Of a DNA stretch of 64,000 bases, positions 6,584-62,289 are shown piece by piece. Location of the stretch: contig JAJFLR010000096.1 in NCBI GenBank assembly GCA_021772565.1, positions 5,266-69,265 of the forward strand, written 5' to 3'. The notes under the pieces are model-generated. The model saw only the letters and a list, made by a program, of their open reading frames with translations. It had not been told where the DNA came from and did not search any database. Origin of the DNA: Opitutales bacterium. Its GTDB lineage: Bacteria > Verrucomicrobiota > Verrucomicrobiia > Opitutales > JAJFLR01. How positions within the stretch are numbered: position 1 is the first letter of the stretch; each line of letters begins with the position of its first letter. A program made the position numbers and the translations under genes.

Positions 6584-6961
6584 TCATTAATCACGCATCA
6601 ATTTTAGTGAGTCAGAAATAGTAAGTAAATATACAAAAAAACAGATAGTAAAATCACCGTAGATCCAGATAGAGTTTTTTAAACAAAATAAGAAGAATGC
6701 GAAAATCATTGCTTAAAACTTACGACACGGAAATAGATAAATGTAACAAATCGCAGGGAAATTGAATTAATGAATTACCAAAATTTTGTGAGTTAGTTCC
6801 TGGTAATATTTTAATTCGTAAATATCAACACGCAGAAGACAACATAGGTCAAAATTAAAACATCAACTGTTTATTGAAATCACTTTCCCTAATTGAAAAA
6901 GCAGTAATAACTAACTTGTGGGCTATTGACATGTAGTGCTTTATCGAAAGAGTTTTCCTCT

Positions 6962-7246
6962 GTGCACATAATAACCCGAAAGCGATTAAACGAGTTTATT
7001 GAGAAACATCCTGATGCTTGCAATGGATTGACACATTGGTACAAATTACTTAAAAACAATAGTTTCAGTAATTTCATACAATTAAAAAAATTAATAGGTA
7101 GTGTAGATCAGGTTGGAAATAAAACCGTATTTAACATAGGTGGAAACAAATATCGACTTATTGCAGCTATTCATTATAACAGAGGAAAAGTTTATATTCG
7201 AGCTATATTGACTCACAATGAGTATGATCAAAACAAGTGGAAATAG
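6962..7246 (+). CDS. higB: type II toxin HigB (RelE-fold mRNA interferase)
   Basis: From GTG 6962: VHIITRKRLNEFIEKHP...VFNIGGNKYRLIAAIHYNRGKVYIRAILTHNEYD. It aligns along its length with E. coli HigB (MHLITQKALKD...FNVGGNELRVVAMV...YIREVMTHKEYD). The ORF-track TTG start at 6926 is probably too far upstream. Confidence 0.8.
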   Translation: MHIITRKRLNEFIEKHPDACNGLTHWYKLLKNNSFSNFIQLKKLIGSVDQVGNKTVFNIGGNKYRLIAAIHYNRGKVYIRAILTHNEYDQNKWK

Positions 7247-7255
7247 GAGTAAAAA

Positions 7256-7483
7256 ATGACATTAACACAAATAGAAAAAACAAAAAGTGTGTGGCCTATA
7301 TTTTCCGACACATTGTATGTAGCTCATACCGAAGATGAATATAAGGAATTAGTATCGTTACTTGATACATTAATAGATGAAGTTGGTGAAGATGAGTCAC
7401 ATCCACTAGCATCATTGATGGAAGTATTAGGGGTATTAATTAAACGATATGAAGATGACAACGTGGAAGAATTAAGTGCCTGA
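7256..7483 (+). CDS. higA: HigA-like antitoxin, N-terminal domain only (no HTH domain)
   Basis: 75 aa, starting 9 nt after higB. TEDEYKELVSLLDTLIDEVGEDESHPLASLMEVLGVLIKRYE resembles the N-terminal half of E. coli HigA (NEEQYTQALELVDHLL..PENPLLDLV...I.AWE). The ORF stops where the HTH half should begin. Confidence 0.55.
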   Translation: MTLTQIEKTKSVWPIFSDTLYVAHTEDEYKELVSLLDTLIDEVGEDESHPLASLMEVLGVLIKRYEDDNVEELSA

Positions 7484-7499
7484 ATTTATTATAATTTCC

Positions 7500-7540
7500 T
7501 CGATAAATCTGAATATAGTATCTGTACAAAGGCATCTGGA
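7500..7540 (-). pseudogene. 41-nt relic of the 3' end of the MBL-fold hydrolase gene
   Basis: tcgataaatctgaatatagtatctgtacaaaggcatctgga matches 19815-19855 and 15216-15256 at about 90 percent by eye. Confidence 0.6.
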
Positions 7541-7646
7541 ATTTCATGATGGGGATATCGGTAATACTTGAATGCGGAACTGTTATCCCTTACTCTCATT
7601 CCAATATAATTATCCAATTCCTGATCGCCATCAATATAATCTAATA

Positions 7647-7794
7647 CCTGGCAGCAAAAAATTTAGCTTCAGGCCAGGAACTGCCGATTGGTATAATAAC
7701 GGGAATTATCGGTTGTCTGTTTTTTTGTATCTGTTACAGTCGAAGAGACATAGGATTTTTGCGTGAGTGATGCAAATACCTAACTAAAAATCAT
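7647..7794 (+). pseudogene. decayed duplicate of the last ~115 nt of the FecCD permease gene plus its hairpin
   Basis: cctggcagcaaaaaatttagcttcaggccaggaactgccgattggtataataacgggaattatcgg... matches 6443-6587 at about 85 percent by eye, with a 1-nt deletion. ORF-track ORF 7572-7766 ends LYLLQSKRHRIF like the permease. Confidence 0.75.
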
Positions 7795-7942
7795 GAAAAA
7801 CCTATGTATTTTCCTTCAATGAATTAGTAATCAGTTTATTTTGAATCGTTTATAGATTTGACAAATAAATATCCTGCTTTTCAAATCTAGCTGTAAATCT
7901 CTACAATTTTCCTACTCTCAAAAATAAAAGGATAAAACATAA

Positions 7943-9415
7943 ATGTTTGAACAGACTTTTAAAAATATTGATGATACTCTCTGGAAAGACGCCGGGTGTA
8001 GTAGTGAATTAGATTACGTAGAACAGACCTCGTGGGTACTGTTTCTGAAATATTTAGACGACTTAGAAAAAGACAAAGCCACAGAAGCTGAACTGATCGG
8101 GAAAACCTACACCAATATTATTGCTCCCAAATTTCAATGGACAACGTGGGCAGCTCCTAAATTAGAAAATGGAAAAATTGATCACAACGCTTTAACCGGT
8201 GATGACCTTGTCGACTTTGTAAACGGTAAACTTTTCCCCTATTTGAAAAAATTCAAAACCGATGCGGAACATGCAAATACCATCGAATACAAAATTGGTG
8301 AGATATTCACTGAACTGAAAAACAGAATTCAAAGCGGTTATAACCTGCGTGAAGTGGTAAACAATATTGATGAACTTCGTTTCAGAACTCACAAGGAAAA
8401 ACACGAGATGAGCCATCTGTACGAAGCGAAAATTAAGAATATGGGCAATGCCGGGCGTAATGGTGGCGAATATTACACACCTCGACCGTTAATTAAAACC
8501 ATTGTAAAAGTGGTGGCTCCTAAAATTGGCAACAAAATTTATGACGGTGCAGCTGGTTCAGCAGGTTTCTTGTGTGAAGCTTTTGAGTATTTAAAGAATC
8601 CTTCGACAAGCTCTGGACAAGGCAAAGGATTATCTACTGCCGATTCTGAAAAGTTGCAGAAAAACACTTTCTACGGTAAAGAAAAAAAATCGTTAGCTTA
8701 TATTATTGGCATTATGAATATGATACTGCACGGCGTTGAAGCCCCAAATATCATCCATACCAATACACTTGCTGAAAACCTTGCAGACATACAGGAAAAA
8801 GACCGTTACGATATAATTTTGGCAAATCCTCCTTTTGGTGGAAAAGAACGTGCCGAAGTACAACAAAATTTTCCCATAAAAACAGGCGAAACCGCTTCTC
8901 TATTTTTACAGCATTTTATTAAAATATTAAAAGCTGGTGGAAAAGCAGGCGTAGTTATTAAAAATACTTTTTTAAGTAATACCGACAATGCCTCTATCGC
9001 TTTGCGCAAAGAATTACTAAGTAGCTGTAACTTACATACGGTTTTGGATTTACCGGGAGGAACGTTTACCGGCGCCGGAGTTAAAACGGTTGTGCTGTTT
9101 TTCAACAAAGGTGTTTCAACTAAAAATGTATGGTTTTATCAACTTAACCTGGACAGGAATTTGGGAAAAACTAACCCGCTCACCGAAAAAGATTTGGCTG
9201 AATTTGTGGCGTTGCAAAAAACAAAAGCTGAGAGTGAAAATTCATGGACAGTAAATATAGCTTCGATAGACTCAGTTACCTTTGATCTTTCTGCTAAAAA
9301 TCCGAATACGCCTGAAGAAGCACAGCTTCGTAAGCCGAAAGATATCTTGAAAGAAATGGCGAAGTTAGATAAAGAAAGTGCAGATATTTTAGCGACAATT
9401 AATGAGTTATTGTGA
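7943..9415 (+). CDS. hsdM: type I restriction-modification system, DNA methyltransferase subunit M
   Basis: 490 aa. HsdM-type N-terminal domain (LWKDAGCSSELDYVEQTSWVLFLKYLDD), AdoMet motif DGAAGSAGFL, catalytic motif NPPFGG. Confidence 0.95.
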   Translation: MFEQTFKNIDDTLWKDAGCSSELDYVEQTSWVLFLKYLDDLEKDKATEAELIGKTYTNIIAPKFQWTTWAAPKLENGKIDHNALTGDDLVDFVNGKLFPYLKKFKTDAEHANTIEYKIGEIFTELKNRIQSGYNLREVVNNIDELRFRTHKEKHEMSHLYEAKIKNMGNAGRNGGEYYTPRPLIKTIVKVVAPKIGNKIYDGAAGSAGFLCEAFEYLKNPSTSSGQGKGLSTADSEKLQKNTFYGKEKKSLAYIIGIMNMILHGVEAPNIIHTNTLAENLADIQEKDRYDIILANPPFGGKERAEVQQNFPIKTGETASLFLQHFIKILKAGGKAGVVIKNTFLSNTDNASIALRKELLSSCNLHTVLDLPGGTFTGAGVKTVVLFFNKGVSTKNVWFYQLNLDRNLGKTNPLTEKDLAEFVALQKTKAESENSWTVNIASIDSVTFDLSAKNPNTPEEAQLRKPKDILKEMAKLDKESADILATINELL

Positions 9416-9837
9416 GTGAGCAACAAGATATTAGATGGGTACAACGATTAGACAACTATAAGAAAGCGCTAAAAAGTTTACTCAGTGACATAGAATTGGC
9501 AACAGCAAGAGAACTTTCTGATATTGAAAAAAGAGGTTTAATTCAAGCATTTAAATACACCTATGAACTAGCCTGGAACACGATCAAGGATTTTTATCAA
9601 TCAATAGGAGATGCTGAAATACAAGGCAGTCGAGATGCTTTTAGAATGGCATTTAATAGAGGTCTGGTTTCTAATGATACTTTATTACAAGCCGTAAAAA
9701 GTCGTCAACTCACCAGTCATACCTACAATGAAGAGACGGCCGACAAAATCTATCATGATGTCGTCAATAGTTATTATGATGCGTTACAGGAGTTAGCAGA
9801 CAATTTACAATCACAAAAAGAAAAAAGAATTTCTTGA
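9412..9837 (+). CDS. HEPN-domain protein, HI0074-type nucleotidyltransferase substrate-binding family (putative RNase toxin)
   Basis: 141 aa. GLIQAFKYTYELAWNTIKDF and R-x4-H motif RQLTSHTY. The GTG start overlaps the hsdM stop (GTGA). Confidence 0.85.
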   Translation: MSEQQDIRWVQRLDNYKKALKSLLSDIELATARELSDIEKRGLIQAFKYTYELAWNTIKDFYQSIGDAEIQGSRDAFRMAFNRGLVSNDTLLQAVKSRQLTSHTYNEETADKIYHDVVNSYYDALQELADNLQSQKEKRIS

Positions 9838-9840
9838 CCG

Positions 9841-11376
9841 ATGTTTGGATTGGACCCTGATACTTTACGAAATATAAGAGGCGTTTTTACAAAACTACCT
9901 CAAATAGAAAAGGTGCTTTTATATGGCTCACGAGCCAAAGGAAATTACCGTAATGGATCAGATATAGATATCACGCTTTTTGGTAATGAGCTAAATCTTA
10001 AAAATAGTGTTTATCCTCTCATGGATGAATTGGATGAACTCTATCTACCGTATACATTCGATATCTCAATTTTTGAGTATATCGATAACGAAAAATTGAT
10101 TGAGCATATTAATAGAGTAGGTAAACTGTTTTATGAAAAAGAAAAGACACTGCCTGTTGGATGGGAAGTGAAAAAGTTAGGGGAAGTTTATGATGTACGA
10201 GACGGAACACACGACTCACCTAAATACATTAATAATGGGCATGCATTAATTACGTCTAAAAATTTAAAGAATGACATTTTAAATTATGACAAAATAAATT
10301 ATATCACTGAGGAAGATTATATGAAAATCAATAAGAGAAGTAAGGTTGATGTAGGTGATGTTTTATTCGCAATGATAGGCACCATTGGGAATCCAATTGT
10401 GATAAAAGTTGAACCAGATTTTGCAATAAAAAATGTGGCTCTTTTTAAAGTTCCAGAAACCCAAGACAGTTATTTTTTGAAATACTATCTTGATTCGGAA
10501 ATTGTTATTGATAAAATGACTAAAGATGCAAAAGGAGCAACACAAAAATTTGTTGGCTTAGGGTACCTAAGAAATTTCAACATCCCTCTTCCCCCACTCT
10601 CCGAGCAAAAACGTATAGTAGCCATTTTAGACAAAGCCTTTGCCGCCATAGCCAAAGCAAAAGCCAATGCCGAACAAAACCTGAAAAACGCCAAAGAACT
10701 TTTTCAATCAAAAATACAAAGCATTTTTGATAATGGAAAATTAAAAATTAAAAATGGTGAATGGGAAGAAAAGCCGTTATGTGTAGTTTGTGAGATAAAA
10801 CCACCAAAGAAAGAAGCAAGGAACAAGTTAAAAAAGTCTGATCTAGTTACTTTCTTACCAATGAAAGATTTGAAAGTATTAAATAAAGAAATCATTGGAG
10901 TTAAAGAAAAACAATTTAAAGATGTAGCTGGCAGCTACACATATTTTGCTAATAATGATGTGCTATTAGCAAAGATAACTCCTTGTTTTGAAAATGGTAA
11001 AATTGGAGTCGCTCGAAAACTGAAAAATGGTATTGGCTTTGGGTCAAGCGAATATGTTGTATTTAGAACTAATGATAGTATAGTTCCTGATTTTTTGTAT
11101 TTCTTTTTATCCAGAAAACAATTCAGAGATGAAGGATGTAAAAAAATGACTGGTGCTGTTGGTCATAAAAGAGTATCAATGGAATGGATTGAAAATTATC
11201 TTTTCTCATTCCCAAAATCTAAAGTGAAACAACAAACCATAGTCCAAAAACTCGACCTACTTTCAGCCAAAACCAAAAAACTAGAAGCAATCTATCAGCA
11301 AAAACTAGAAGATTTGGAAGAACTGAAAAAGAGTGTATTACAAAAAGCGTTTAACGGAGAATTGGCATTGAAGTGA
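9841..11376 (+). CDS. hsdS: fusion protein: minimal nucleotidyltransferase (MNT) domain + type I R-M specificity subunit S
   Basis: Residues 1-100 carry LLYGSRAKGNYRNGSDIDITLFG (GS...DxD NTase motif). From residue 103, LPVGWEVKKLGEV starts a two-TRD HsdS with conserved repeats LPPLSEQKRIVAILDKAF and QKLEDLEELKKSVLQKAF. There is no stop codon between the two parts. Confidence 0.85.
   Translation: MFGLDPDTLRNIRGVFTKLPQIEKVLLYGSRAKGNYRNGSDIDITLFGNELNLKNSVYPLMDELDELYLPYTFDISIFEYIDNEKLIEHINRVGKLFYEKEKTLPVGWEVKKLGEVYDVRDGTHDSPKYINNGHALITSKNLKNDILNYDKINYITEEDYMKINKRSKVDVGDVLFAMIGTIGNPIVIKVEPDFAIKNVALFKVPETQDSYFLKYYLDSEIVIDKMTKDAKGATQKFVGLGYLRNFNIPLPPLSEQKRIVAILDKAFAAIAKAKANAEQNLKNAKELFQSKIQSIFDNGKLKIKNGEWEEKPLCVVCEIKPPKKEARNKLKKSDLVTFLPMKDLKVLNKEIIGVKEKQFKDVAGSYTYFANNDVLLAKITPCFENGKIGVARKLKNGIGFGSSEYVVFRTNDSIVPDFLYFFLSRKQFRDEGCKKMTGAVGHKRVSMEWIENYLFSFPKSKVKQQTIVQKLDLLSAKTKKLEAIYQQKLEDLEELKKSVLQKAFNGELALK
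10732..10764. repeat. half copy (one arm) of the heptamer hairpin element inside hsdS
   Basis: aatggaaaattaaaaattaaaaatgg versus the H4 left arm aatggaaaattgaaagttgaaaatg (about 22/25). It is translated as NGKLKIKNG at the junction of the central conserved region and TRD2. Confidence 0.5.
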
Positions 11377-11466
11377 ATAGTAATACTCTTAAAGCTGGAA
11401 AAGTAATTATGGATGTGCAGAAACAAACGCAAATATCAATAAATATTAATTCAATAGGAGGAGGAT

Positions 11467-11790
11467 GTGAAAAACAAGCAAAGCAATAAGGCAAACAAAC
11501 TCGTTATATTCCAAAGCAAAAACATTCGCAGAATATGGCACGAAGAAGCGTGGTTTTATTCCGTTGTGGATATTATTGAAGTGCTTACCGACAGCCCTAC
11601 GCCAAGGCAATATTGGGGGAAAGTAAAAGACAGGGAATTTACAAAACTTCAGTTGTCCCCAATTTGGCTACAACTGAAATTGCCATCAAAAGACGGTAAA
11701 AAATACAACACCGATTGCGTCAATACCAAGAATGCTTTCCGCCTAATCCAATCCATCCCCTCCAAAAAAGCCGAATCACTGGTTAATTGA
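11467..11790 (+). CDS. Bro-N domain protein, apparently 3'-truncated
   Basis: GTG start preceded by aggagg. IRRIWHEEAWFYSVVDIIEVLTDSPTPRQYW...FRLIQSIPSKKAE looks like a Bro-N/antirepressor-type N-domain. The ORF ends in a TGA supplied by repeat H1. Confidence 0.6.
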   Translation: MKNKQSNKANKLVIFQSKNIRRIWHEEAWFYSVVDIIEVLTDSPTPRQYWGKVKDREFTKLQLSPIWLQLKLPSKDGKKYNTDCVNTKNAFRLIQSIPSKKAESLVN

Positions 11791-11885
11791 AAAATGAAAA
11801 TTGAAAGTTGAAAATGAGTAAATAAATGAAAATCAAACATTAAAATGACAAATAACTTTCAATTTTCAACTTTCAATTTTCAATT
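11785..11885. repeat. heptamer hairpin element H1
   Basis: Left arm gaaaattgaaagttgaaaat, loop of about 40 nt, right arm ctttcaattttcaactttcaattttcaatt (inverted). Confidence 0.8.
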
Positions 11886-12245
11886 ATGAAAGAGAATATA
11901 ATAATGAATAAATCGTATGCTTTTGCATTACGAATAACTAAATTGTATAAATATCTAATTTCAGAACAAAAAGAGCATGTACTTTCCAAGCAGGTTTTAA
12001 GAAGTGGAACCAGTATAGGTGCATTGGTAAAAGAAGCTGAACATGCCCAATCAAAAGCCGATTTTATCAACAAAATGAATATTGCACTAAAAGAAGCTAA
12101 CGAAACAGAATATTGGTTGATGCTACTAAAAGACAGTAAATATATTGATGAAAATAGTTTTAATTCCATTCATCCCGAAAGTGTTGAACTCATAAAACTA
12201 TTAGCCAGTATCGTTAAGTCATCAAAGGGAAAAATTGAAAATTGA
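11886..12245 (+). CDS. four-helix-bundle protein (23S rRNA intervening-sequence protein / Avd-like family)
   Basis: 119 aa (alternative start at 11904). ...SKQVLRSGTSIGALVKEAEHAQSKADFINKMNIALKEANETEYWLMLL matches the signature of this family. Its ATG abuts H1 and its stop lies inside H2. Confidence 0.8.
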   Translation: MKENIIMNKSYAFALRITKLYKYLISEQKEHVLSKQVLRSGTSIGALVKEAEHAQSKADFINKMNIALKEANETEYWLMLLKDSKYIDENSFNSIHPESVELIKLLASIVKSSKGKIEN

Positions 12246-12347
12246 AAATTGAAAGTTGAAAGTTGAAAATGAGTAAATAATTGGAAATTAAACATTAAAA
12301 TGACAAAGAACTTTCCATTATCCATTTTCAACTTTCAATTTTCAATT
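12231..12347. repeat. heptamer hairpin element H2
   Basis: aaaattgaaaattgaaaattgaaagttgaaagttgaaaatgag ... ccattttcaactttcaattttcaatt. The loop is similar to that of H1 (gagtaaata...aaacattaaaatgacaaa). Confidence 0.8.
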
Positions 12348-12391
12348 AAAGCAACGCGCCTAATGAACGAAGTCGAAACCAGATCAAGGTT
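12348..12391 (+). pseudogene. orphan duplicate of the hsdR leader and first ~11 codons
   Basis: aaagcaacgcgcctaATGAACGAAGTCGAAACCAGATCAAGGTTAATT (MNEVETRSRLI) versus the real start aaagcaaagcgtATGAATGAAGCAGAAACCAGAGCAGAACTAATA (MNEAETRAELI). Confidence 0.7.
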
Positions 12392-12471
12392 AATTGAAAG
12401 TTGAAAATTGAAAATCAGTAAACAATTAAAATGACAAATAACTTTCAATTTTCAATTTTCAATTTTCAATT
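12392..12471. repeat. heptamer hairpin element H3
   Basis: aattgaaagttgaaaattgaaaatcag ... aactttcaattttcaattttcaattttcaatt. Confidence 0.8.
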
Positions 12472-12483
12472 AAAGCAAAGCGT

Positions 12484-15120
12484 ATGAATGAAGCAGAAAC
12501 CAGAGCAGAACTAATAGACCCAAAGCTCAAACAATGTGGTTGGGGGGTGGTTGACGGTTCTAAAATTCTGCGTGAGCGCCATGTTTGTAAAATTACAGAG
12601 GGACGATTACAAGTCGGTGGTGGCAGAAAAAAACCACTGATTGCCGATTATATTCTGGTTTACAAAGGCGTTAAACTAGCCGTAGTTGAAGCTAAAAGCA
12701 ATGAGCTTGAAGTTGGCGAAGGGGTGGTGCAGGCAAAACGTTATGCTGAAAAACTTAATTTAGAAACCACATACTCTTCAAACGGAAAAGAGATTTACCA
12801 AATCTGTATGAAAACCGGGACAGAGGGTTTGGTTACCAATTTTCTTTCGCCGCAAGAACTTTGGGATAAAACCTACCCTGCGACAGGCTCAGGGCAGGTG
12901 CATATTAATGACTGGCGAGATAAATTTGCAGACATTCCTTTTGAAGATAAAAGCGGAACCTGGCAATTACGTTACTATCAGGAAATTGCCATAAAAAATA
13001 CACTCGAAGCAGTGGCACAAAATAAAGACAGAATTTTATTAACCCTCGCCACAGGAACAGGAAAAACGGCAATTGCTTTTCAAATAGCCTGGAAACTTTT
13101 TCAAAGCCGCTGGAACCTTTCGGTAATTGAAAATGGAAAATTGAAAGTTGAAAATGACGAGAACTATAATTTTCAATTTTCAACTTTCAATTCTCCATTT
13201 TCAAGAAGGCCACGAATATTGTTCCTTGCCGATCGCAATTTTTTGGCTGACCAGGCATTTAACGCATTTTCAGCATTTCCCGAAGATGCTTTGGTTCGTA
13301 TAAAACCAAAAGAGATTAAGAAGAAAGGAAAAGTGCCAACTAACGGCAGTATCTTTTTTACCATTTTTCAATCCTTTATGTCAGAATCAATTGATAATGG
13401 AGAGGGGACAATTGAAAATGGAAAATTGAAAATTGAGAATGGGAAATTGAGAATTGATAAGATTGAAGCTGAACCTTTAATGGTTGCAGAACAACGAGCT
13501 AATTATCCATTATCCATTGTCAATTCTCAATTATCCACCGTCAATTCTCAATTAAACTTCGGACAGTACCCAAAAGACTATTTTGATTTTATTATAATTG
13601 ACGAGTGCCACCGTGGCGGAGCGAATGATGAGGGAAACTGGAGAGGTATTTTAGAATATTTTTCACCAGCCGTTCAATTGGGTCTTACTGCGACACCCAA
13701 ACGTAACGACAATGTTGATACCTATAAATATTTTGGTGAACCTGTTTTTATCTATTCGCTCAAAGAAGGTATAAACGATGGATTCCTTACGCCATTCAAG
13801 GTAAAGCGAATTAAAACAACACTAGACGATTATTTATACACCAGTGATGACGATGTTTTTGAAGGCGAGATTGAAGAAGGGAAAATATACGAAGAACAGG
13901 ACTTTAATAAAAAAATTAAAATAAAAGAGCGAGAGGCAAAGCGAGTTCAGATTTATATGGATGAGGCTAATCAACACGAAAAAACTATTATTTTCTGTGC
14001 CACGCAAATGCACGCTGCCGCAGTTCGAGATTTAGTAAATCAGTACAAAAAAAATAACGACCCGAACTATTGTGTTCGTGTAACTGCAAACGATGGCGAA
14101 ATAGGCGAACAATTTTTACGGGAATTTCAAGATAATGAGAAAACAATTCCAACGGTATTGACCACATCCCAAAAACTATCAACAGGTGTTAATGCCCGAA
14201 ATATTCGCAACATTGTTTTAATGCGACCAATAAATTCAATGATAGAATTCAAACAGATTATTGGACGTGGTACGCGATTATTTGAAGGTAAAGAGTTTTT
14301 CACTATTTACGATTTTGTGGATGCGTATCATCATTTTCAAGATGATGCCTGGGATGGTGAAGCCCTGCCGTGTGAGGTTTGTGGCAAAATAGTATGCGAG
14401 TGTATTGGAACACCCTCCCCTGAACCAAGACCGTGTCAAAAGTGCGGTAAAATTCCTTGTGAGTGTTCAGTCAATCCACCGCCAGTTTGCCCTAAGTGCT
14501 TTCAGAGTCCCTGTGTTTGTGATCGTAAACAAATGATTAAGGTTAAACTGCGAGATGGCAAAGAGAGAGAAATACAACACATGATTGCGACATCCTTCTG
14601 GAGTGCTGACGGTAAACCAATATCTGCAGAAGAATTTTTAGGTAATCTATTTGGCGAACTTCCTAATTTCTTTAAAGATGAGGATGAATTAAGAACTTTA
14701 TGGAGCAGCCCCATAACACGTAAGACTTTGCTCGAAAAATTAGACGAAGCAGGTTTTGGAAAAGAGGAATTAAAGACTTTGCAAAAACTAATTGAGGCAG
14801 AGAAAAGCGATTTATTCGATGTATTGGAATATGTGTTTAACAGCGACGTAAAACCAATAACAAGAGAAGAACGAGTAACAAGAAGCAAAGCAACAATTTT
14901 TGCTCTGCTTAACGACAAGCAAAAAGAATTCATAGAATTCGTATTGAGTAAATATATTGAAACAGGTGTTGAGGAACTATCCCAGGAAAAATTACCCATC
15001 TTACTGACCAATAAATATCAATCATTGGAAGATGCCAAAGAAATATTGGGTGATGCAGCAAAAATCAAATCGCTGTTTATAGAATTTCAGCAACATTTGT
15101 ATCTACAAAAAACAGCGTAG
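12484..15120 (+). CDS. hsdR: type I restriction enzyme, endonuclease/translocase subunit R
   Basis: 878 aa. N-terminus MNEAETRAELIDPKLKQCGW. Helicase motifs LATGTGKT, ILFLADRN, IIIDECHRG, LGLTATP, QIIGRGTRL. Helical C-terminal domain. Contains two in-frame repeat insertions and a Cys-rich triplet. Confidence 0.9.
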   Translation: MNEAETRAELIDPKLKQCGWGVVDGSKILRERHVCKITEGRLQVGGGRKKPLIADYILVYKGVKLAVVEAKSNELEVGEGVVQAKRYAEKLNLETTYSSNGKEIYQICMKTGTEGLVTNFLSPQELWDKTYPATGSGQVHINDWRDKFADIPFEDKSGTWQLRYYQEIAIKNTLEAVAQNKDRILLTLATGTGKTAIAFQIAWKLFQSRWNLSVIENGKLKVENDENYNFQFSTFNSPFSRRPRILFLADRNFLADQAFNAFSAFPEDALVRIKPKEIKKKGKVPTNGSIFFTIFQSFMSESIDNGEGTIENGKLKIENGKLRIDKIEAEPLMVAEQRANYPLSIVNSQLSTVNSQLNFGQYPKDYFDFIIIDECHRGGANDEGNWRGILEYFSPAVQLGLTATPKRNDNVDTYKYFGEPVFIYSLKEGINDGFLTPFKVKRIKTTLDDYLYTSDDDVFEGEIEEGKIYEEQDFNKKIKIKEREAKRVQIYMDEANQHEKTIIFCATQMHAAAVRDLVNQYKKNNDPNYCVRVTANDGEIGEQFLREFQDNEKTIPTVLTTSQKLSTGVNARNIRNIVLMRPINSMIEFKQIIGRGTRLFEGKEFFTIYDFVDAYHHFQDDAWDGEALPCEVCGKIVCECIGTPSPEPRPCQKCGKIPCECSVNPPPVCPKCFQSPCVCDRKQMIKVKLRDGKEREIQHMIATSFWSADGKPISAEEFLGNLFGELPNFFKDEDELRTLWSSPITRKTLLEKLDEAGFGKEELKTLQKLIEAEKSDLFDVLEYVFNSDVKPITREERVTRSKATIFALLNDKQKEFIEFVLSKYIETGVEELSQEKLPILLTNKYQSLEDAKEILGDAAKIKSLFIEFQQHLYLQKTA
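13125..13204. repeat. heptamer hairpin element H4, in frame inside hsdR
   Basis: The arms match 28/29 as an inverted repeat around a 13-nt loop. Translated as IENGKLKVENDENYNFQFSTFNSPFS. Confidence 0.8.
13410..13553. repeat. heptamer hairpin element H5, in frame inside hsdR
   Basis: 144 nt. Arms aattgaaaatggaaaattgaaaattgagaat... and ...caattctcaattatccaccgtcaattctcaatt. Translated as IENGKLKIENGKLRID...LSIVNSQLSTVNSQL. Confidence 0.75.
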
Positions 15121-47825: not shown

Positions 47826-49982
<2,157 letters not shown>

Positions 49983-50022
49983 CTTAATTATAATTTGAAA
50001 ATAATTTGAATGAGTTTCTCAA

Positions 50023-50493
50023 TTACCAACGTAAATGAGCAAAAGCACGATTTGACTGAGCCATTTTATGTGCTTCTTCTTTTTTCCTCACTACAGTACC
50101 TCTATTGTTGTAGGCTTCAATAATTTCTTGTGCTAATGCTTCCTTCATTGGTTCTCTACGTTTACGAGCAGCATCACGTAACCACCGAAAAGCTAAACTT
50201 TGTTGCCTCTCATGAGGTAGTTCAACAGGAACTTGGTATGTAGTACCACCTACCCTTCGACTTTTAACTTCTAATTTAGGCCTGATATTTTCCAATGCTC
50301 CTAAAATGAGATCTATAGGATCACCTTTACCCAATTCTTCACTTACTCTCTCAAATGCCCCATAAACGACTCCTTGAGCAACACTCTTCTTCCCACCAAT
50401 CATGAGAGAATTGATCAATTGACTAACCAATTGGCTATTATATCTAGTATCCGGCAAATGTTGCCGTTTTTCTGCTTTTCGTCTGCGTGACAT
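50023..50493 (-). CDS. rpsG: 30S ribosomal protein S7
   Basis: MSRRRKAEKRQHLPDTRYNS...AHKMAQSNRAFAHLRW. Confidence 0.95.
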   Translation of the reverse strand: MSRRRKAEKRQHLPDTRYNSQLVSQLINSLMIGGKKSVAQGVVYGAFERVSEELGKGDPIDLILGALENIRPKLEVKSRRVGGTTYQVPVELPHERQQSLAFRWLRDAARKRREPMKEALAQEIIEAYNNRGTVVRKKEEAHKMAQSNRAFAHLRW

Positions 50494-50513
50494 TTTTTAA
50501 AATCTTATTTTTA

Positions 50514-50897
50514 TTATTTTTTGCTCTCTTTGGGTCTTTTTACTCCATATTTTGAGCGACTGCGTCGTCTTTTCTCAACACCCATACAATCTAAAGTTCC
50601 TCTAACAGTATGATAACGCACACCTGGTAAATCTTTAACACGACCACCTCGAATTAATACAACACTATGCTCCTGTAAATTGTGGCCTTCATCTGGAATA
50701 TAAGAAATGACTTCATATCCATTTGTTAAACGCACTTTTGCAACCTTACGAATAGCAGAATTAGGTTTTTTAGGTGTTCGTGTCATCACCTGTACACATA
50801 CTCCCCTACGAAAAGGACTAGATCCAAGTGCTGGAGACTTGCTCTTACTCGTTACTTTACGGCGCGGTTTGCGCACTAATTGATTAATTGTTGGCAT
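50514..50897 (-). CDS. rpsL: 30S ribosomal protein S12
   Basis: Start taken at [12 protein letters not shown] (canonical). The ORF-track start at 50954 adds 19 non-homologous residues. Confidence 0.95.
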
Positions 50898-51115
50898 AAA
50901 ATTATTTTTAATAAGGAGGGGAAAAGCGTGGAAGCTACATTTTCTTAGAAACAAATCAAGTAAGAATTTTTTTTTTTTAATTATATCAGTAAAATTTGAT
51001 AAATTAGCACATTAATTGCTTTAAAAATTATACTAACAATAGAATGAAATAGATTTTTTTAAATCTGTTACAATTTTTAATCAAAAAATTAATTCTTTTT
51101 ATTATTATTTATTAA

Positions 51116-54100
51116 TCACACAACTTCATCTACCTCCATAGTTTCTTCATCAATTTCAGCACCCAAAGTTTTGATGCGTAATCGACGATATTTAGGAAGT
51201 CCAGTACCAGCAGGAATAAGATGTCCCATAATAACATTTTCTTTAAAGCCTGTTAGTTTATCTACTTTACCTAAAGTGGATGCATCTGTCAAAACACGAG
51301 TTGTTTCCTGAAATGATGCTGCAGAAATAAAACTTTCGGTTTCTAATGAAGCTTTAGTAATTCCAAGTAAAATTGGATCACCTTCAGCAGGTTTACCACC
51401 CGCTTCAACAATACGTTCGTTTTCTGTCATAAATTTTTCTTTGTCTATTTGCTCTCCCCAGAAAAATTCGGTATCTCCTGGATCAGTAATACGAACTTTA
51501 CATAACATCTGACTAATTATGAGCTCAATATGTTTATCATTAATGGTCACACCTTGTAAGCGATAAACTTTTTGAATTTCAGATAAAAGATATTCCTGCA
51601 CTGGATTTGGCCCGAGTATTTCCAATATTTCATGTGGATCTGCTGCACCCTCAGTTAATGGCTGACCTTTATAAACAAAATCTCCAGGTTGCACAATTAT
51701 GTGTTTACCGTGAGGAATAAGATGTTCACCTTCACTACCATCATTTTCGTTAGTAACGATTAAACGTTTTTTGCCTCTAATAGTTCCTCCTATTGAAACT
51801 ATACCGTCCAACTTAGCCATTTCATTTGCTTCTTTGGGTCGACGTGCTTCAAACAGTTCAGCAACACGTGGCAAACCACCTGTAATGTCTTGTGTTTTAG
51901 AGGCAGAACGAGGAGTTTTAGCAAGTAGTGCACCTGGATGAATTATATCACCTTCACTGACCTGAACTTGTGCTCCGGTAGGAATTGAATATGTAGCAAT
52001 TGTTTTAGTTTTGATTTGAGATTTTGTTTTACTCGTATCATAACCCTTTGGTGTCTCGTGAATCTCAACTATCGGATTTAAATCTTCTTTATGTTCAATT
52101 ACAACTGTTGCAATTCGACCTGTTGTTGGGTCAACTTCTCGTTTAACAGTTACACCAGGAATCATATCCTTAAATTTAATAACACCTCCTTTTTCAGAAA
52201 GAATTGGAACATTATGTGGATCCCACTGCGCTAATATTTGATCTTTTTCTATAACAGCACCGTCATCCAAATTCAAAATAGCACCAGAAGGCATCTTGTA
52301 ATTTTCAAGTTCCCTCTCGTTATCACCCAATATGATAATAGCACCTGTTTTGTTGACAACCACATTGATACCCTCACCAGTTTTAACTAAACGTAGGCCT
52401 TTATATTTTACTAAACCATGATTTCTTACTTTAATCTCTGAACTTTTTGAGATCTGGCTGGCAATACCACCAATGTGAAAAGTACGCATTGTTAATTGCG
52501 TCCCTGGCTCACCAATCGACTGTGCAGCTATGATACCGACAGCTGTTCCTGATTCTACTATTCTATTTGTTGATGGATCAAGACCATAAGCACGAGCCGT
52601 TAGACTATCTCTTCTTATATGAGTTAGTGGAGACATTACTTTTACCCTCTCAACTCCAAGGTCTTCAATCTTTCTTGCTAAGACTTCGGTAATCAATTCA
52701 CCATTTCCAACAAGTATTTCATCAGGATTTGTTGGATTATAAACATCTTCACTTGAACACCTACCTACTATTCTATCATAAAGACTAACTATCTCATCGT
52801 CACCCTCGTGAATAGCAAACTTCCATATTCCATCACGATTTCCATCATCATCAGAGGTAATGATAATATCCATCGCAACATCACAAAGTTTTCTTGTTAA
52901 ATAACCGGCATCAGCAGTCTTTAAAGCAGTATCAGCCAGTCCCTTTCGAGCACCATGTGTAGAAATAAAATACTCTAATACAGTTAGTCCCTCTCTAAAC
53001 GATGATAATATTGGTCTTTCAATAATTTCACCAGATGGTTTCGCCATTAGACCACGAGTTCCACAAAGTTGTCTGACTTGCTGTCTATTACCACGAGCAC
53101 CAGAATCCATCATCAAAAAGATTGGGTTTACTTCGTCACTATTTTGATTAGAATCAAGACAATGAAACACACTTTTAGCAATGTCGTCTGTTGCAGTTGT
53201 CCAGATATCAATTATTTTATTATACCTCTCGCCTTGTGTGATAATACCCTTACGATACTGCGCCTCAACTTCCTCGATTCTATTGCGCGCAGCAGCAACT
53301 ATACTTGGCTTATCATCAGGTATTATCATATCCTCCATACCAATTGATAGACCCGCTTTAGTTGCTGTGTTAAAACCAAGTTTCTTGAGCTCATCCAAAA
53401 CAATAACAAGTTTTTCTTTACCAGTTATTTTATAAGATTGTAATATGAGATCTCCAAGCTTTGCTTTAGCTACTGGAAAATCAATAAACCCTAACTCATC
53501 CGGCCATATAAGACTGAATAAAACTCGGCCTACTGTTGTTTGAAGAATTTTCTTATCTGGTTTACCATATACAGTTTCTTTTCCAAAATCAGGATTCACA
53601 AATCGTATATGATCATGAGTTTTAACAACACCATCACCATTTGCTAATATTACTTCATTTGTGTTAGCGAATAACGGTATGTGATTATTTGGTTTACTGG
53701 TTGTCTTAGGTTCTAATGTTAAATAATAGGCACCTAATACAATATCTTGTGAAGGTGTTAATATTGGCTTACCACTTGATGGTGAAAAAATATTATGAAC
53801 ACTCATCATCAATAATTTTGTTTCAAGTATGGCTTCCAGAGAAAGCGGAACGTGAACCGCCATTTGATCTCCATCAAAATCAGCATTATAAGCAGTACAA
53901 ACCAAAGGATGAACTCGAATTGCATCACCCTCAATTAAAACAGGTTCAAAGGCTTGAATTGAAAGTCGATGCAAAGTTGGAGCTCGATTAAGTAAAACTG
54001 GATGCCCTTTTGTCACTTCTTCTAAAATATCCCAAACCTCAGGTGACCTCTTCTCAATCATTTTCCGAGCACCTCTGACAGTGTGAACAAAACCTAATTC

Positions 54101-55273
54101 TTTAAGTCTTCTGATAATAAAAGGCTCAAATAAAACCAATGCCATCTTTTTAGGTAATCCGCACTGATGTAATTTTAAATCCGGCCCAATAACTATAACT
54201 GATCTACCGCTATAGTCTACACGTTTGCCAAGCAAATTTTGACGGAATCGACCTTGCTTACCTTTTAGCATATCACTCATTGATTTCAATGGTCTGTTAC
54301 CGGCACCAGTAACTGCACGACCACGTCGGCCGTTATCAAATAATGCATCAACCGCCTCTTGTAACATACGTTTTTCATTGTGTATGATAACGGCAGGTGT
54401 TTTAAGTTGAAGTAAATTTTTAAGTCGATTGTTTCGATTAATGACACGTCTATAAAGATCATTGAGATCACTCGTTGCAAATCGTCCACCTTCCAAAGGA
54501 ACTAATGGTCTTAGATCCGGTGGAATGACTGGTAAAGATTCTAGAACCATCCACGATGGCAATGTATTAGAATTTATAAATCCTTGAATAACTTTCAATC
54601 GTTTGGACAACTTCTTTTTTATCTGTTTGGAACGCGTATTATGTAACTGCTCCTGCAATTCATCTACAAGAGATTCCAAGTCTAGTCTTGCTAAATTTTC
54701 CTGTAAAGCAATTGCTCCCATTTTTGCTTCAAATGAATCAAAGCCATACTCTTCAATTGCAGTCTGATATTCCTGTTCTGTAAGTAACTGTTTTTCTTCT
54801 AACGGAGTTTTACCTGGATCTGTAACCATATAATTTTCATAATATATGACACGCTCCAAATTCCGCGCAGTTATATCTAGTAATAACCCCAGTCTGCTAG
54901 GCATACTTTTTAAAAACCAAATATGTGTAACTGGAACTGCTAGTTCAATATGCCCCATACGTTCACGTCGAACTCTAGACACAGTTACTTCTACACCACA
55001 ACGGTCACAAACAACACCTTTAAATTTAATTCTTTTATATTTACCACAGGCACATTCATAGTCTCTAACGGGTCCAAAAATTCGTTGGCAAAACAAACCA
55101 CCAGGCTCAGGTTTAAATGTACGGTAATTAATCGTCTCCGGATTTTTAACTTCACCTCTAGACCAAGAACGTATTGTATCAGGGGAAGCAACCGTAATGG
55201 ATACTTGATCAAATGATTGTTCCTTATCAAAACCAAGAAACTCTTTTACTTCGCGAATATCAGTACTACTCAT
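51116..55273 (-). CDS. rpoC: DNA-directed RNA polymerase subunit beta'
   Basis: 1385 aa. Zn finger CACGKYKR...CDRCGVEV. Catalytic [13 protein letters not shown]. Confidence 0.97.
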
Positions 55274-55313
55274 TTTTTTCCTTTTTTAAACGATTGAAAA
55301 AATTTAAATATTA

Positions 55314-58300
55314 TTAATTTGAAAATGCTTCTACTTCATTTTCACTAGTCAACCTTATATCAAGACAAAGACTTTGCATCTCTTTCATCAAAACATTAAA
55401 TGATTGTGGTGTACCAGCTTGTAAACTGTTATCACCCTTAACTAATGATTCATAGATCTTGGTACGACCACTCACATCATCACTTTTAACAGTAAGTAGT
55501 TCCTGCAAAGTGTAGGCAGCACCATATGCTTCTAAAGCCCAAACCTCCATCTCACCAAAACGTTGTCCACCGTATTGTGCCTTGCCCCCTAACGGCTGTT
55601 GTGTTATGAGTGAATAAGGCCCTACGGCTCTAGCGTGAATCTTATCAGCTACCAAGTGATTAAGTTTAATCATATAAACATAACCAACAACAACTTTTTG
55701 ATCAAACTGTTCTCCAGATCGACCATCAAAAAGAATGCTTTTACCCGCTACAGGCAATTTTGCCTGTTTGAGATAATCCTTAATCTTATCTTCAGAAATT
55801 CCATCAAATACAGGTGTCGCTACTTTGATACCAAGAACTTGGCACGCCCATCCTAAATGGGTTTCTAATACTTGCCCTACATTCATTCGACTCGGAACTC
55901 CAAGTGGATTTAAAACAATTTGAATAGGCGTTCCATCCGGTAAAAATGGCATATCTTCTTCTGGAAGTATTCTAGCCACAACCCCTTTATTTCCATGGCG
56001 ACCAGCCATTTTATCACCAACTTGAATCTTGCGCTTGGTTGCAACATAAACTTTTACATTTTTAATTACACCTTGATCAATATCATCGCCAGATTCAATG
56101 GATTCTATCTTTCGGCCGCGATCACCATCAAGTTCATCAAATTTAGATTCAAACGTTTTAATTATCTCCATAATTTTAATTTTAATTGGAGATGGATCAA
56201 TTTCGATAGTTTTGTAAACGGCCGCTAAACGCCTAAGTAACGTTTTTGTTATTTTGCGATTTGCAGGTATTATTACTTCGCCTGTCTCACAATTATTTAC
56301 ATCTAACGGGATTTTTTCACCCAGCAGAATATTCGACAAAGATTCGGTTAGATTCTCTCGAATTTTATCGGTTTGTGAACGATATTCCTCATTTATCTTT
56401 TTAACCTGACGACGTCTGTCTGACGGACTCATCTGTTCTTTGTCTGCATCAACTCTACTCGACACTTTGACATCCATGACAATTCCATAAACTCCTGATG
56501 GTACCATCAATGATGTATCTTTTACATCAGCTGCTTTTTCACCGAAAATTGCTCTTAGTAATTTTTCTTCCGGTGCCAATTCGGTTTCACTTTTTGGTGT
56601 AATTTTTCCAACTAAAATATCACCGGGTTTAACTTCCGCACCTACTCTAATAACACCATCGTGATTTAAATTTTTAAGTGCTTCCTCTCCAACATTTGGA
56701 ATATCACGGGTAATTTCTTCTGCACCTAATTTTGTATCACGAGCAGTTACGTCAAATTCTTCAATATGTATAGATGTGTAAATATCATCTTTAATTAACT
56801 TTTCACTCAGTAAAATTGCGTCTTCAAAATTATACCCATTCCAAGGCATAAATGCTACGAGAACATTTCGTCCAAGCGCTAGTTCTCCACTTTCAGTAGC
56901 AGCACCATCAGCTATGACTTCACCTACTTTTACTTTTTGCCCTTTGGATACAATTGGGTTCTGATTAAAACAAGTACCTGCATTAGATCGCATGAATTTT
57001 CTTAATTCATAAACATAAATTGAGGCTTTTGTATCAGTTGTTCGACTACGATTAAATTTAGCTGGCAATGTTCCATCTGGACTGATTACTATCATCTTGG
57101 CATCAACACTGGCAACAATTCCATCAGATTCAGATACCTCAATTGTCTTTGAATCCTTAGCAACTCGATGTTCAATACCAGTACCTACAAAAGGAGCTTC
57201 AGTTCGCAAAAGTGGCACCCCCTGACGTTGCATATTTGAACCCATCAGTGCACGATTAGCGTCATCGTGCTCGAGAAAAGGAATTAATCCAGCAGCAACT
57301 GATATTAATTGCTTGGGAGAAACATCCATGTATTCTACATCGTTTGCATCGAGTTCTAAAAAGTTATCGGCTTTTCTTACTGTAATTTTTCCAACTAGAT
57401 TACTGTCTACATCTAATTCTGAGTTTGCTTGAGCAATTATATGACCCTCTTCCTGATCGGCTGTCAGATATAATATTTCATCAGTAACCTTCCCCTCTTT
57501 TACTACACGATAAGGTGTTTCAATAAACCCAAATTCATTTACTCTGGCATATGTACTCAATGAGTTTATAAGACCAATATTTGGACCTTCAGGTGTTTCA
57601 ATAGGACAAATACGACCGTAGTGCGAAGGATGTACATCGCGCACTTCAAATCCTGCTCTTTCACGATTTAGTCCACCGGGTCCTAGTGCTGAAAGTCGAC
57701 GTTTATGTGTTAGCTCAGCTAAAGGATTAATTTGATCCATGAATTGGCTTAATTGACTTCGTGCAAAAAAGTCCCGAATGACAGTACTAAGTGCTTTTGG
57801 ATTAATTAATTTTTGTGGGCTAATTGTGTCTACACTTTGATCGTAAAGAGTCATACGCTCTTTCACCAATCTTTCAGTTCTAGCAAGTCCAATACGGCAT
57901 TGATTCATCAATAATTCACCAACTGTTCGAACTCGTCGACTTCCAAGATGATCAATATCATCGACAACGCCAGTACCTGATTTTAATCGAATAACATAAT
58001 TTGTTGCTTCAACTATATCTTCTGCGTTTAAAATTCTAACATCCAGATCAGTTTCTAAATTTAATTTTTGATTAATTTTATAACGCCCAACTCTTCCTAA
58101 ATCATACCGTTTTGTATCTTGAAATAATCTTTTTAGTAATGCTTTTGCGTTGGATACTGTTGGGGGCTCACCAGGACGAAGTCTTTTATAAATATCTTTG
58201 AGTGCCTCTTCCTCGTTTCGAGCAGGGTCTTTTTTCAAACATCTAATTATAACGCCTTCGTCCTCTTGTGTATCAATAACACGAACAGTTGTAATGGATG

Positions 58301-59096
58301 CTTTTAAAAATCCACGAACTATAGTTTTTGTTAGCGGCTCAAATGATCTTGCTATAACAACACCACGTTCGGCATCGACAATATCCTCCACCAATACCAA
58401 GCGACTTACGTTTTCCATTTCAAGAGCATCGCTAACTGTTAGATCAATGATATCGTAAAACAGATTTAGAATATCAAAATCACTGCTGTACCCCATGGCA
58501 CGTAATAAAGTAGTAATGAGGAACTTCCTACGACGTCGACGTCTATCTAAATAGACATACAATAAATCATTTTGATCAAACTGCACCTCTAGCCATGTGC
58601 CACGATCCGGTATTATTCTAAAGCTAAATAATAATTTTCCACTTGTATGCGGTGTGACTTCAAAGCAAATACCAGGAGAACGATGTAATTGACTGACCAC
58701 AACTCTTTCTGCACCATTTATGATAAAAGATCCCCGTTCTGTGATCATTGGAATTTCACCTAAATAAATCTCCTCATCCAAAATATTATCTTCTTCCTTC
58801 AAACGAAGTTTTACATAAAGCAAAATAGAATAAGTAACACCCTCACGAATGCATTCCATTTCAGTAAATTTAGGACCACTTAATTTGTAGGAAACATACT
58901 CTAAATGACAACGTCCATCATAACTTTCAATCGGAAAAATTTCCCTAAAAACTGCCTCTAGTCCCAATGCTTTTCTGCCTTCACTTGGATAATTTTCCTG
59001 AATAAATTCTTTGAATGAATTTATCTGATTTTCGATTAAATTTGGAGGTTGAATCACCTCTCTAAGTTTGCCAAAATTTTGTCGTTCTTTAATCAT
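55314..59096 (-). CDS. rpoB: DNA-directed RNA polymerase subunit beta
   Basis: 1260 aa. ...[34 protein letters not shown]... (rifampicin-region consensus). Confidence 0.97.
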
Positions 59097-59226
59097 AGTT
59101 AGTCAATTATCTGGTTTTTAAAATATCGTTAGAAAAAATATAAACAGAAATAGAACGGACATCTGAAATATCCGCTCTACAATTGAATCGTTAATTTAAA
59201 ATTAATTGGTTTGATAAACCAGTGAA

Positions 59227-59610
59227 TTATTTAATTTCTACTTCAGCTCCAACAGCTTCAAGCTTCTTTTTAATCTCCTCAGAATCTTCTTTGCTAACAC
59301 CTTCCTTGACAGGTTTAGGTGCACTTTCAACAAGTTCCTTTGCTTCCTTTAATCCTAACCCGGTAATTGCTCTAACTTCTTTAATTACAGCAATTTTGTT
59401 GCTACCAAAAGCTTTGAGAACTACGTCAAACTCAGTCTTTTCTTCAGCTTGCGGTGCAGCTTCTCCACCACCACCGGCAACTGCAACTGCAACAGGAGCT
59501 GCCGCACTGACACCCCATTTATCCTCGAGCTCTTTAACTAGTCCAGCTATCTCGAGAACAGTTTGATTACTAAGCCATTCCACTACTTGATCTTTATTTA
59601 TATCTGCCAT
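59227..59610 (-). CDS. rplL: 50S ribosomal protein L7/L12
   Basis: ...[53 protein letters not shown]. Confidence 0.95.
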
Positions 59611-59781
59611 TTTTAACCTCCTTGTTGATTAGCGCAACTTCTCTCAGAAGCAACATTTAAGGGAAACTGTTCCCCTAATCTTTTTATTTAAGTCAATGTA
59701 AATTTGTAATGTTATTAAGTATGTAAACTTTCAACTAAAAAATTAATAATTTATTAAATTCAACAAAATTATCCTCTAAAA

Positions 59782-60282: not shown

Positions 60283-60292
60283 AATAAAATTC

Positions 60293-60988: not shown

Positions 60989-60999
60989 TTTATATTTAA

Positions 61000-61422
61000 C
61001 TATATTATTTCTATTCCCATTGATCTTGCCGTCCCTGCTATAATTTCTATAGCAGCATCTTCGCTACCAGAATTAAGATCCTTTACTTTAGTTTTAGCAA
61101 TTTCAGCTAACTGCTTACGTGTAACTTTACCAACTTTATCACGATTTGGTATACCAGAACCCTTTGCAATACCAGCGGCTTTTTTTAGAAGCACTGCAGC
61201 TGGTGGTGACTTTAATACAAATGAAAATGATCGATCCTGATAAACTTCAATTACTACTGGCAATATTAAGCCTGCTTGATCTTTAGTTCTGGCATTATAT
61301 TCTTTACAAAATGCCATGATATTTACTCCTTGTGCACCGAGTGCAGGGCCGACTGGTGGTGCCGGATTGGCTGCACCTGCCGGGAGTTGAAGTCTAATAA
61401 TTCCTGTTACTTTTTTTGCCAT
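61000..61422 (-). CDS. rplK: 50S ribosomal protein L11
   Basis: [43 protein letters not shown]... Confidence 0.95.
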
Positions 61423-61432
61423 TTTTTATTAT

Positions 61433-62035: not shown

Positions 62036-62054
62036 TATTTTAATTTTTTAAGTA

Positions 62055-62267: not shown

Positions 62268-62289
62268 TAATTTTTTAATTTTTAAAATC

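Follow-up and report, generated by a model that had tools for sequence, protein, structure and literature searches.

Analysis of a 64,000-nucleotide stretch of DNA from an Opitutales bacterium (contig JAJFLR010000096.1, forward strand; hereafter the window) indicates that the antitoxin domain of a toxin-antitoxin pair, a minimal nucleotidyltransferase (MNT), is joined to the specificity subunit HsdS of a type I restriction-modification operon, immediately downstream of the gene for its putative HEPN partner toxin. The MNT-HsdS fusion is real at the level of the sequence, both of its halves are complete and the catalytic residues of the nucleotidyltransferase are intact. We read the locus as a type VII toxin-antitoxin module placed inside a type IB operon, in which MNT serves as the N-terminal domain of HsdS and the main role of the fusion would be that of an addiction or stabilisation device for the hsdM-HEPN-hsdS unit, a reading to which we would give an even chance.

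The coordinates of hsdM, the HEPN gene and the fusion gene are collected in Table 1. A sequence-only reading of this DNA had already reported this layout, together with the GTGA overlap through which the GTG start of the HEPN open reading frame (ORF) at 9412 shares nucleotides with the hsdM stop, the spacer of 3 nt between the HEPN stop and the start of the fusion, and the 511-codon length of the latter, and all of these proved accurate. The spacer reads CCG and is followed by the ATG of the fusion at 9841. It had further stated that the MNT part has no stop codon of its own and can be made only as an N-terminal extension of HsdS, which agrees with the frame being open from 9841 to 11376. Its assignment of a HEPN protein, an MNT domain and an HsdS with two target recognition domains (TRDs) was upheld by searches with hidden Markov models (HMMs; PF08780, PF18765 and PF01420, respectively). 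Two Methylase_S domains (PF01420) span residues 105-509 of the fusion, which also matches the PADLOC model Specificity_I (E 2e-85), and the HEPN protein scores 67 bits against the NCBIfam model TIGR01987 of the HI0074 family, whose cutoff is 55.8.

An AlphaFold model of the fusion, built on an alignment of fusions, has a mean pLDDT of 86.9 and contains a full nucleotidyltransferase fold (residues 1-99), a short linker, TRD1 (109-252), a helix (253-301), TRD2 (308-460) and a second helix (461-504); its pTM of 0.64 leaves the mutual placement of the MNT and HsdS halves open. When the model was compared with known structures by Foldseek, the front part matched the Legionella MNT structure 8XEO (TM 0.88, root-mean-square deviation 1.7 A) and the back part matched the HsdS structures 1yf2, 3okg and 5ybb_D.

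An error of assembly or sequencing could in principle have created a false fusion, and the exact sequence was indeed seen in one genome only, with no sister locus found; likewise, scanning metagenomes with the junction peptide brought up nothing closely related to the fusion, and the HsdS proteins that share TRD1 of the window are all unfused. However, positions 6841-11868 of the window, junction included, are matched with 100% identity by an independent Logan assembly of run SRR15505518, and dozens of other proteins share this junction. In addition, only one residue separates the C-terminal consensus of MNT (...GKLFYEKEK) from the N-terminal consensus of HsdS (LPVGWEVKKLGEV, which includes the invariant Trp108), and both are read in one frame, so that there is no room for a hidden frameshift. 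We consider an artefact extremely improbable.

The in-frame GTG at 10168 had been proposed as an internal start that would additionally give free HsdS. This codon exists, but free HsdS made from it is unsupported, because the GTG lies after the invariant Trp108 and five other fusions (L001, L002, L003, L016 and L079) share no conserved start codon at their junctions.

The sequence-only reading had taken the two proteins for a toxin-antitoxin pair of the AMPylating kind, and homology upholds this. The closest solved relative of the HEPN protein is Legionella Lpg2920 (PDB 8XDJ/8XEM; E 1e-38) and that of the MNT domain is Legionella Lpg2921 (PDB 8XEH/8XEO; E 2e-22). Lpg2920 and Lpg2921 form a toxin-antitoxin pair of type VII whose HEPN gene precedes the MNT gene and in which the MNT protein is a monomer without the C-terminal alpha4 helix of other MntA proteins and poly-AMPylates Tyr105 in the RX4HXY motif of HEPN (PMC11586414). 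The Legionella MNT ends in ...LFYTKE exactly where the window reads ...LFYEKEK and runs on into HsdS. The residues R98, H103 and Y105 of the window HEPN are invariant in the alignments, and the RX4HXY motif is invariant in the HEPN partners of all 12 loci examined in a type I context. The window has a HEPN protein with the RX4HXY acceptor tyrosine and an MNT of pol-beta fold with the GSX10DXD motif, as type VII pairs do; the usual two separate proteins from adjacent, coupled genes are absent, since the genes are adjacent but the antitoxin is the N-terminal domain of HsdS. Its sequence places the pair among the AMPylating HEPN/MNT (type VII) systems and in the Lpg2920/Lpg2921 class.

The fusion recurs widely. 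We collected about 87 distinct MNT-HsdS proteins with pairwise identities down to 33%, and the catalytic motif GS..DxD is present in every one of them; together with D74 it is kept in 87/87 fused MNT domains and in 245/246 standalone ones, which speaks for purifying selection on the fused domains. Ten other MNT+HsdS proteins were found among the 120 best HsdS homologues, being 35-55% identical overall and carrying different TRDs behind the same junction, and an exhaustive search with the MNT domain gave 3315 hits, with 68 of the top 150 cluster representatives being MNT+HsdS by HMM. In a library of 50%-identity representatives the fusions look dominant (35 of the top 40), and this library appears to favour long representatives; the entries listed by a word-index search with the MNT domain were all standalone MNTs, about 100 amino acids long and up to 85% identical to the window. 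Because both searches are biased, through the choice of representatives and through length, we claim no ratio of fused to unfused forms. On plasmids, a tblastn search with the first 140 amino acids returned standalone MNTs only, at 40% identity or less, and no fusion.

In all four fusion loci that were examined in full (L001, L002, L003 and L016) a HEPN gene lies upstream of MNT-hsdS. Two of them (L002 and L003) show the complete order hsdM - HEPN - MNT-hsdS - passengers - hsdR, with an hsdR of the EcoEI_R_C type; such an hsdR was also seen in L001, where hsdM was not identified, and L016 has hsdM and no hsdR within the flank. A fifth fusion locus (L079), ended by a contig edge, has hsdM and HEPN upstream. 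In L001 and L016 a four-helix-bundle gene of the 23S-rRNA-IVS type is inserted between HEPN and the fusion gene, and HEPN is still kept. The length of the tether varies among fusions: the linker between MNT and HsdS in L001:3783-5390, L016:9168-10730, P0009 and P0122 contains four tandem copies of LPKGDALS, encoded by a 24-nt repeat.

The wider context was surveyed in the 80 best HEPN loci from species-representative genomes. About 70 of them are free-standing pairs, with HEPN first in all but two and typically a 4-nt overlap, and roughly 10 have type I neighbours, so that the earlier description of such pairs as frequent passengers of type I operons was too strong. Both fused and unfused hsdM-HEPN-MNT-hsdS loci, whose comparison had been proposed, are represented: L016 and L079 are MNT-HsdS fusions, and in L040 and L046 the same genes are unfused, with the MNT stop overlapping the hsdS ATG (ATGA). 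The latter two are the obvious precursor state, because the ATGA overlap is one indel short of a fusion, and a small indel at a stop/start overlap of this type would be the most likely origin of the fusion. Another locus (L074) has an unfused HEPN-MNT-hsdR arrangement, and in two more, L031:548-1826 of a Sulfurovum metagenome-assembled genome (MAG) and L035:2055-3178 of a Pseudomonadales MAG, MNT stands at the N-terminus of HsdR (HSDR_N E 1e-43; Polbeta + HSDR_N + ResIII) in the gene order hsdM-hsdS-HEPN-MNT/hsdR. In MNT-HsdR the antitoxin has thus become joined, independently, to another subunit of type I enzymes. The toxin gene precedes the antitoxin gene in this MNT class, and the stop codon of MNT normally overlaps the start of the next gene. 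Since these MNTs are monomeric, lack alpha4 and have a free C-terminus, an extension at that end can be tolerated; and the 3' position of MNT within the pair would explain why the antitoxin is the partner that becomes fused and why any gene lying next can be joined to it.

The MNT domain would AMPylate Tyr105 of HEPN and thereby silence the RNase, as the Legionella, Shewanella and Aphanizomenon systems suggest. Because the antitoxin is made only within HsdS, the neutralisation of newly made HEPN would depend on the expression of hsdS. HsdS is poorly soluble without HsdM, and the supply of antitoxin probably depends as well on the methylase being assembled, with HsdM stabilising HsdS. The hsdM-HEPN-hsdS block would thereby become addictive, a property that type I systems are otherwise not known to have, owing to restriction alleviation.

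Several observations weigh against the addiction reading. A catalytic antitoxin needs no tether; the hsdR of the window carries two in-frame repeat insertions and its restriction activity is putative; and for tvrAT, a toxin-antitoxin pair of a pneumococcal type I locus, an addiction phenotype was sought experimentally and not found (PMC6265443). The MNT class is also fused to DUF1016_N (the N-terminal domain of YhcG-like nucleases), to a UDG-superfamily domain and to EcoR124_C fragments of HsdR (P0172, P0252, P0216, P0262), and fusion to unrelated downstream genes such as DUF1016 and UDG points to adjacency-driven read-through rather than to a specific partnership. A neighbour-joining tree of 352 MNT domains, of about 100 amino acids each and without support values, implies about 30 changes between the fused and unfused states. 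In this tree the MNT of the window sits among standalone sequences, its nearest relatives, up to 85% identical, being standalone, and the close relatives L087 and L089 are ordinary HEPN-then-MNT pairs amid housekeeping genes. Decayed fusions occur outside restriction-modification operons: the MNT of L088 (P0276), the third of the close relatives inspected, keeps a stub of HsdS there, and the 'standalone' relatives P0281 (...FYEREKGLPEG...) and P0282 bear scars of the junction. One further protein (P0121) consists of MNT plus half an HsdS.

These comparisons indicate that the fusion arises repeatedly and is sometimes long retained and sometimes lost, and so high a turnover would be expected of a tolerated accident no less than of a selected device. 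Under the former, an indel at the stop/start overlap would have caused a neutral read-through, leaving an ordinary selfish pair whose tether has no function. The overlap of the MNT stop with the hsdS ATG in unfused loci, the variety of downstream genes to which MNT is fused, the free-standing nearest relatives in housekeeping contexts and the action of MNT as a catalytic monomer all agree with this. On the other hand, two sizeable clades of the MNT tree keep the fusion (45/51 and 22/24 tips) through deep divergence and TRD swapping, the catalytic residues are invariant in all of the collected fusions, and HEPN is upstream in every fusion locus, even where a gene has been inserted between the two. 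A neutral accident is a tentative explanation that deserves serious weight.

A last point against the addiction device concerns the toxin of this copy. RNase activity and toxicity of the Legionella HEPN need a Mg site formed by Gln44 and Glu47, and the E47A mutant loses RNase activity and no longer arrests the growth of E. coli (PMC11586414). The window HEPN has the equivalent of Gln44 (Gln45), but Lys48 at the position of Glu47, where 82/84 homologues have Glu and only the window and L014 have Lys; Glu is also kept in 7/8 HEPN partners from fusion loci. Because Lys48 replaces a residue needed for activity in the Legionella homologue, the toxin of the window may be attenuated or dead. One could then regard the module as decaying, with a toxin already inactivated by E48K and an MNT that is a relic riding on a functional HsdS, and the decay products among its relatives, the truncation of the neighbouring Bro-N gene and the insertions in hsdR would suit this view. 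The HEPN ORF is nevertheless of full length with all other conserved residues intact, and so is the catalytic motif of MNT. Moreover, Lys is not Ala, so that the E47A result cannot be carried over directly, and the role of Glu47 comes from one study whose model of the active site departs from the usual Rx4H view. We hold decay to be somewhat unlikely.

A further, weaker possibility, put forward by the sequence-only reading, is that the module is a guard set off by an attack on the methylase complex. HEPN would then be silenced by MNT on the methylase/restriction complex and released by an anti-restriction protein or by loss of the complex. This would be in line with the precedents of PrrC-EcoprrI (PMC3710099) and Ronin (bioRxiv 10.1101/2023.04.06.535777), with the fusion of the antitoxin to two different type I subunits and with the retention of the fusion in two clades. 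Nevertheless, no sensor logic is evident, neither HEPN nor MNT is matched by any PADLOC model, and the window copy has K48 at the position of the catalytic Glu. In addition, because AMPylation is covalent, firing of a guard would need fresh toxin or de-AMPylation, and we find a guard improbable for this locus. In the same vein, the antitoxin tether might be a built-in abortive-infection arm, which would make MNT-HsdS and MNT-HsdR a distinct class of type I systems. In these, the enzyme that AMPylates the HEPN RNase would be physically integrated into the methylase/restriction complex, and neutralisation would end, freeing the RNase, once the complex was lost, degraded by proteolysis or targeted by anti-restriction proteins; we consider this similarly improbable.

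Table 1. Features of the type I operon and its toxin-antitoxin module, in coordinates of the window
Feature	Position	Strand	Description
hsdM	7943..9415	+	490 amino acids; type I N6-adenine methyltransferase subunit; Pfam N6_Mtase E 4e-61 + HsdM_N; PADLOC MTase_I E 2.5e-162
HEPN toxin gene	9412..9837	+	141 amino acids; Lpg2920/HI0074 class; PF08780 NTase_sub_bind E 3.6e-34
HEPN codon 48 AAA (Lys)	9553..9555	+	Aligned with Glu47 of the Legionella HEPN, a metal-site residue
RX4HXY motif of HEPN: R98 QLTS H103 T Y105	9703..9726	+	RQLTSHTY, residues 98-105; Tyr105 is the expected AMPylation site
MNT-HsdS fusion ORF	9841..11376	+	511 amino acids; single uninterrupted reading frame
MNT antitoxin domain	9841..10146	+	Residues 1-102; without its own stop codon; Polbeta/NTP_transf_2 PF18765 at residues 11-102, E 8e-16
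MNT catalytic motif G29-S30...D41-I-D43	9925..9969	+	GS..DxD; D74 also kept
HsdS part	10147..11376	+	Residues 103-511: N-terminal LPVGWEVKKLGEV, TRD1, central helix, TRD2, C-terminal helix
In-frame GTG (Val110)	10168..10170	+	Proposed internal HsdS start; not supported
Truncated Bro-N ORF	11467..11790	+	107 amino acids; passenger between hsdS and hsdR; PF02498 E 5e-6
Four-helix-bundle (23S rRNA-IVS protein family) passenger	11886..12245	+	PF05635 E 3e-28, TIGR02436; heptamer palindromes on both sides
hsdR, EcoAI-family (type IB)	12484..15120	+	878 amino acids; NF046051 763 bits (cutoff 550); ResIII, EcoEI_R_C

The operon has the composition of a type I system of the EcoAI family, with an HsdM combining the N6-adenine methyltransferase and HsdM_N domains, a two-TRD HsdS with long helices and an HsdR of the EcoAI/EcoEI kind. 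Two passengers lie between hsdS and hsdR. The Bro-N ORF aligns to just the first 102 of the 286 positions of the PADLOC candidate defence protein PDC-S13 and seems to be cut off where the first palindromic element starts, while full-length Bro-N genes are found at similar positions in L002 and L088. The palindromic element, of about 80-110 nt, is made of TTGAAAA/TTGAAAG heptamers and is located at 11783-11890, 12231-12347, 12385-12473, 13124-13204 and 13395-13553, with a degenerate half-copy at 10713-10757; the motif was hit 19 times in the 64-kb window, where 0.03 hits would be expected, and every hit falls in the interval 11.8-13.5 kb. The two copies at 13124-13204 and 13395-13553 are in-frame insertions in hsdR, whose ORF stays open, and encode ...IENGKLKVEN...NFQFSTFN... 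and ...ENGKLKIENGKLRI...SIVNSQLSTVNSQL. Insertions of palindromic elements in frame are known from Rickettsia, and the element of the window resembles these.

Other type IB operons related to this one also carry passengers. In L001 and L004/L005, SIR2_2 genes are located in the gap between hsdS and hsdR, joined by DUF87 in L001 only, RhuM and ORF6N are found in the gap between hsdM and hsdS, and a GIY-YIG domain lies inside hsdR. The gaps of these operons act as hot spots for defence-type passengers. Directly upstream of hsdM, the window has a HigB-like toxin gene (6926-7246; PF09907 E 6e-29) with a small partner (7256-7483). This pair (6926-7483) matches PADLOC PD-Lambda-2_A and, weakly, PD-Lambda-2_B, and is a second toxin-antitoxin-like pair adjoining the same restriction-modification operon.

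The window is chromosomal, since the large ORFs at 51116-59096 have the size and position expected of rpoB and rpoC and are probably these genes; putative EF-G and EF-Tu ORFs, tRNA-Trp and tRNA-Thr are nearby (47826-63669). Its G+C content is 35%, and at 90% identity neither the putative EF-Tu nor the putative EF-G clusters with any other protein, pointing to a poorly sampled lineage; HEPN and HsdM likewise lack named mates at this threshold. An Rfam scan of the window found tRNAs only, and a scan for promoters and terminators gave no informative signal above background.

Neither the toxin-antitoxin family nor the restriction-modification family is new, and the two are known to occur together. 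A census of HEPN proteins in 2013 reported that MNT-associated HEPN genes cluster with restriction-modification operons and that HEPN itself is fused to nucleases and helicases, and it described no MNT-HsdS fusion (PMC3710099). The sequence-only reading knew of no such fusion either, and we found none in full-text searches of the literature or in recent structural papers on HEPN/MNT and a 2026 paper on a fused MNT-HEPN; with about 87 proteins, however, the arrangement is common and by no means unique to the window. An antitoxin covalently joined to HsdS, and elsewhere to HsdR, thus appears to be undescribed, and databases label the MNT-HsdS proteins merely 'S subunit'. With this finding, the known range of type I specificity subunits gains an N-terminal domain that recurs but has gone unannotated. 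The idea that HEPN RNases encoded near restriction-modification genes serve as a second line of suicide effectors is an old one, with experimental support only from PrrC and recently from Ronin, and a covalent link between a type VII antitoxin and HsdS or HsdR would offer a simple, testable physical route for such coupling. If the fusion is neutral, it would still illustrate clearly how chimeric genes can come about from modules in which the toxin gene leads and stop and start codons overlap.

Among restriction-coupled toxins, PrrC is a fair precedent, as the sequence-only reading had suggested. Like the HEPN protein of the window, it is an RNase of the HEPN superfamily encoded inside a type I hsd operon, and PrrC/EcoprrI is the classical case of a restriction enzyme that keeps a suicide RNase latent. 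However, PrrC is a large protein that combines an ABC-ATPase with HEPN and is kept silent by binding directly to EcoprrI, with neither a nucleotidyltransferase antitoxin nor an HsdS fusion, whereas the window HEPN is a minimal protein of 141 amino acids that has PF08780 only and no ABC-ATPase N-terminal domain. The nearest experimental analogue of the proposed coupling is Ronin of E. coli ECOR55, in which HsdM-HsdS suppresses the lethality of RonA; the anti-restriction proteins ArdA and Aop1 release RonA, whereas Ocr does so only in ECOR55, the native host (bioRxiv 10.1101/2023.04.06.535777). RonA is a membrane protein of 61 amino acids, and its locus has no hsdR, enzymatic antitoxin or fusion; in the window hsdR is present and the toxin candidate is a soluble HEPN. 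The Phd-Doc pair tvrAT of the pneumococcal SpnIV type I locus is, like the pair of the window, a toxin-antitoxin pair between hsd genes, but it belongs to a different family, is unfused and regulates rearrangement of the locus (PMC6265443).

Among HEPN/MNT systems, the Legionella pair shares with the window the HEPN gene in first place with MNT close behind, the RX4HXY motif with Tyr105, and a short MNT with GSX10DXD and without alpha4. It differs in that its MNT is a separate protein of 108 amino acids and not the N-terminal domain of an HsdS, and in that the window locus lies inside a type I operon and its HEPN has Lys at the position of the catalytic Glu47. HepT/MntA of Shewanella oneidensis (SO_3166/SO_3165), the HEPN/MNT pair of Aphanizomenon flos-aquae and HI0074/HI0073 belong to the same superfamilies as the pair of the window and share one chemistry, in which MNT (poly)AMPylates a Tyr beside the Rx4H motif of the HEPN RNase. 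Each of them is a two-gene module that stands alone, their MNTs dock on HEPN through a C-terminal alpha4, and their PDB matches are more distant (E 5e-5 to 7e-3). Finally, FhepTA resembles the window in that a type VII antitoxin domain works while covalently fused (PMC13000451). There, MNT is fused to its own toxin, whereas in the window the toxin is separate and MNT is fused to a subunit of the restriction-modification system.

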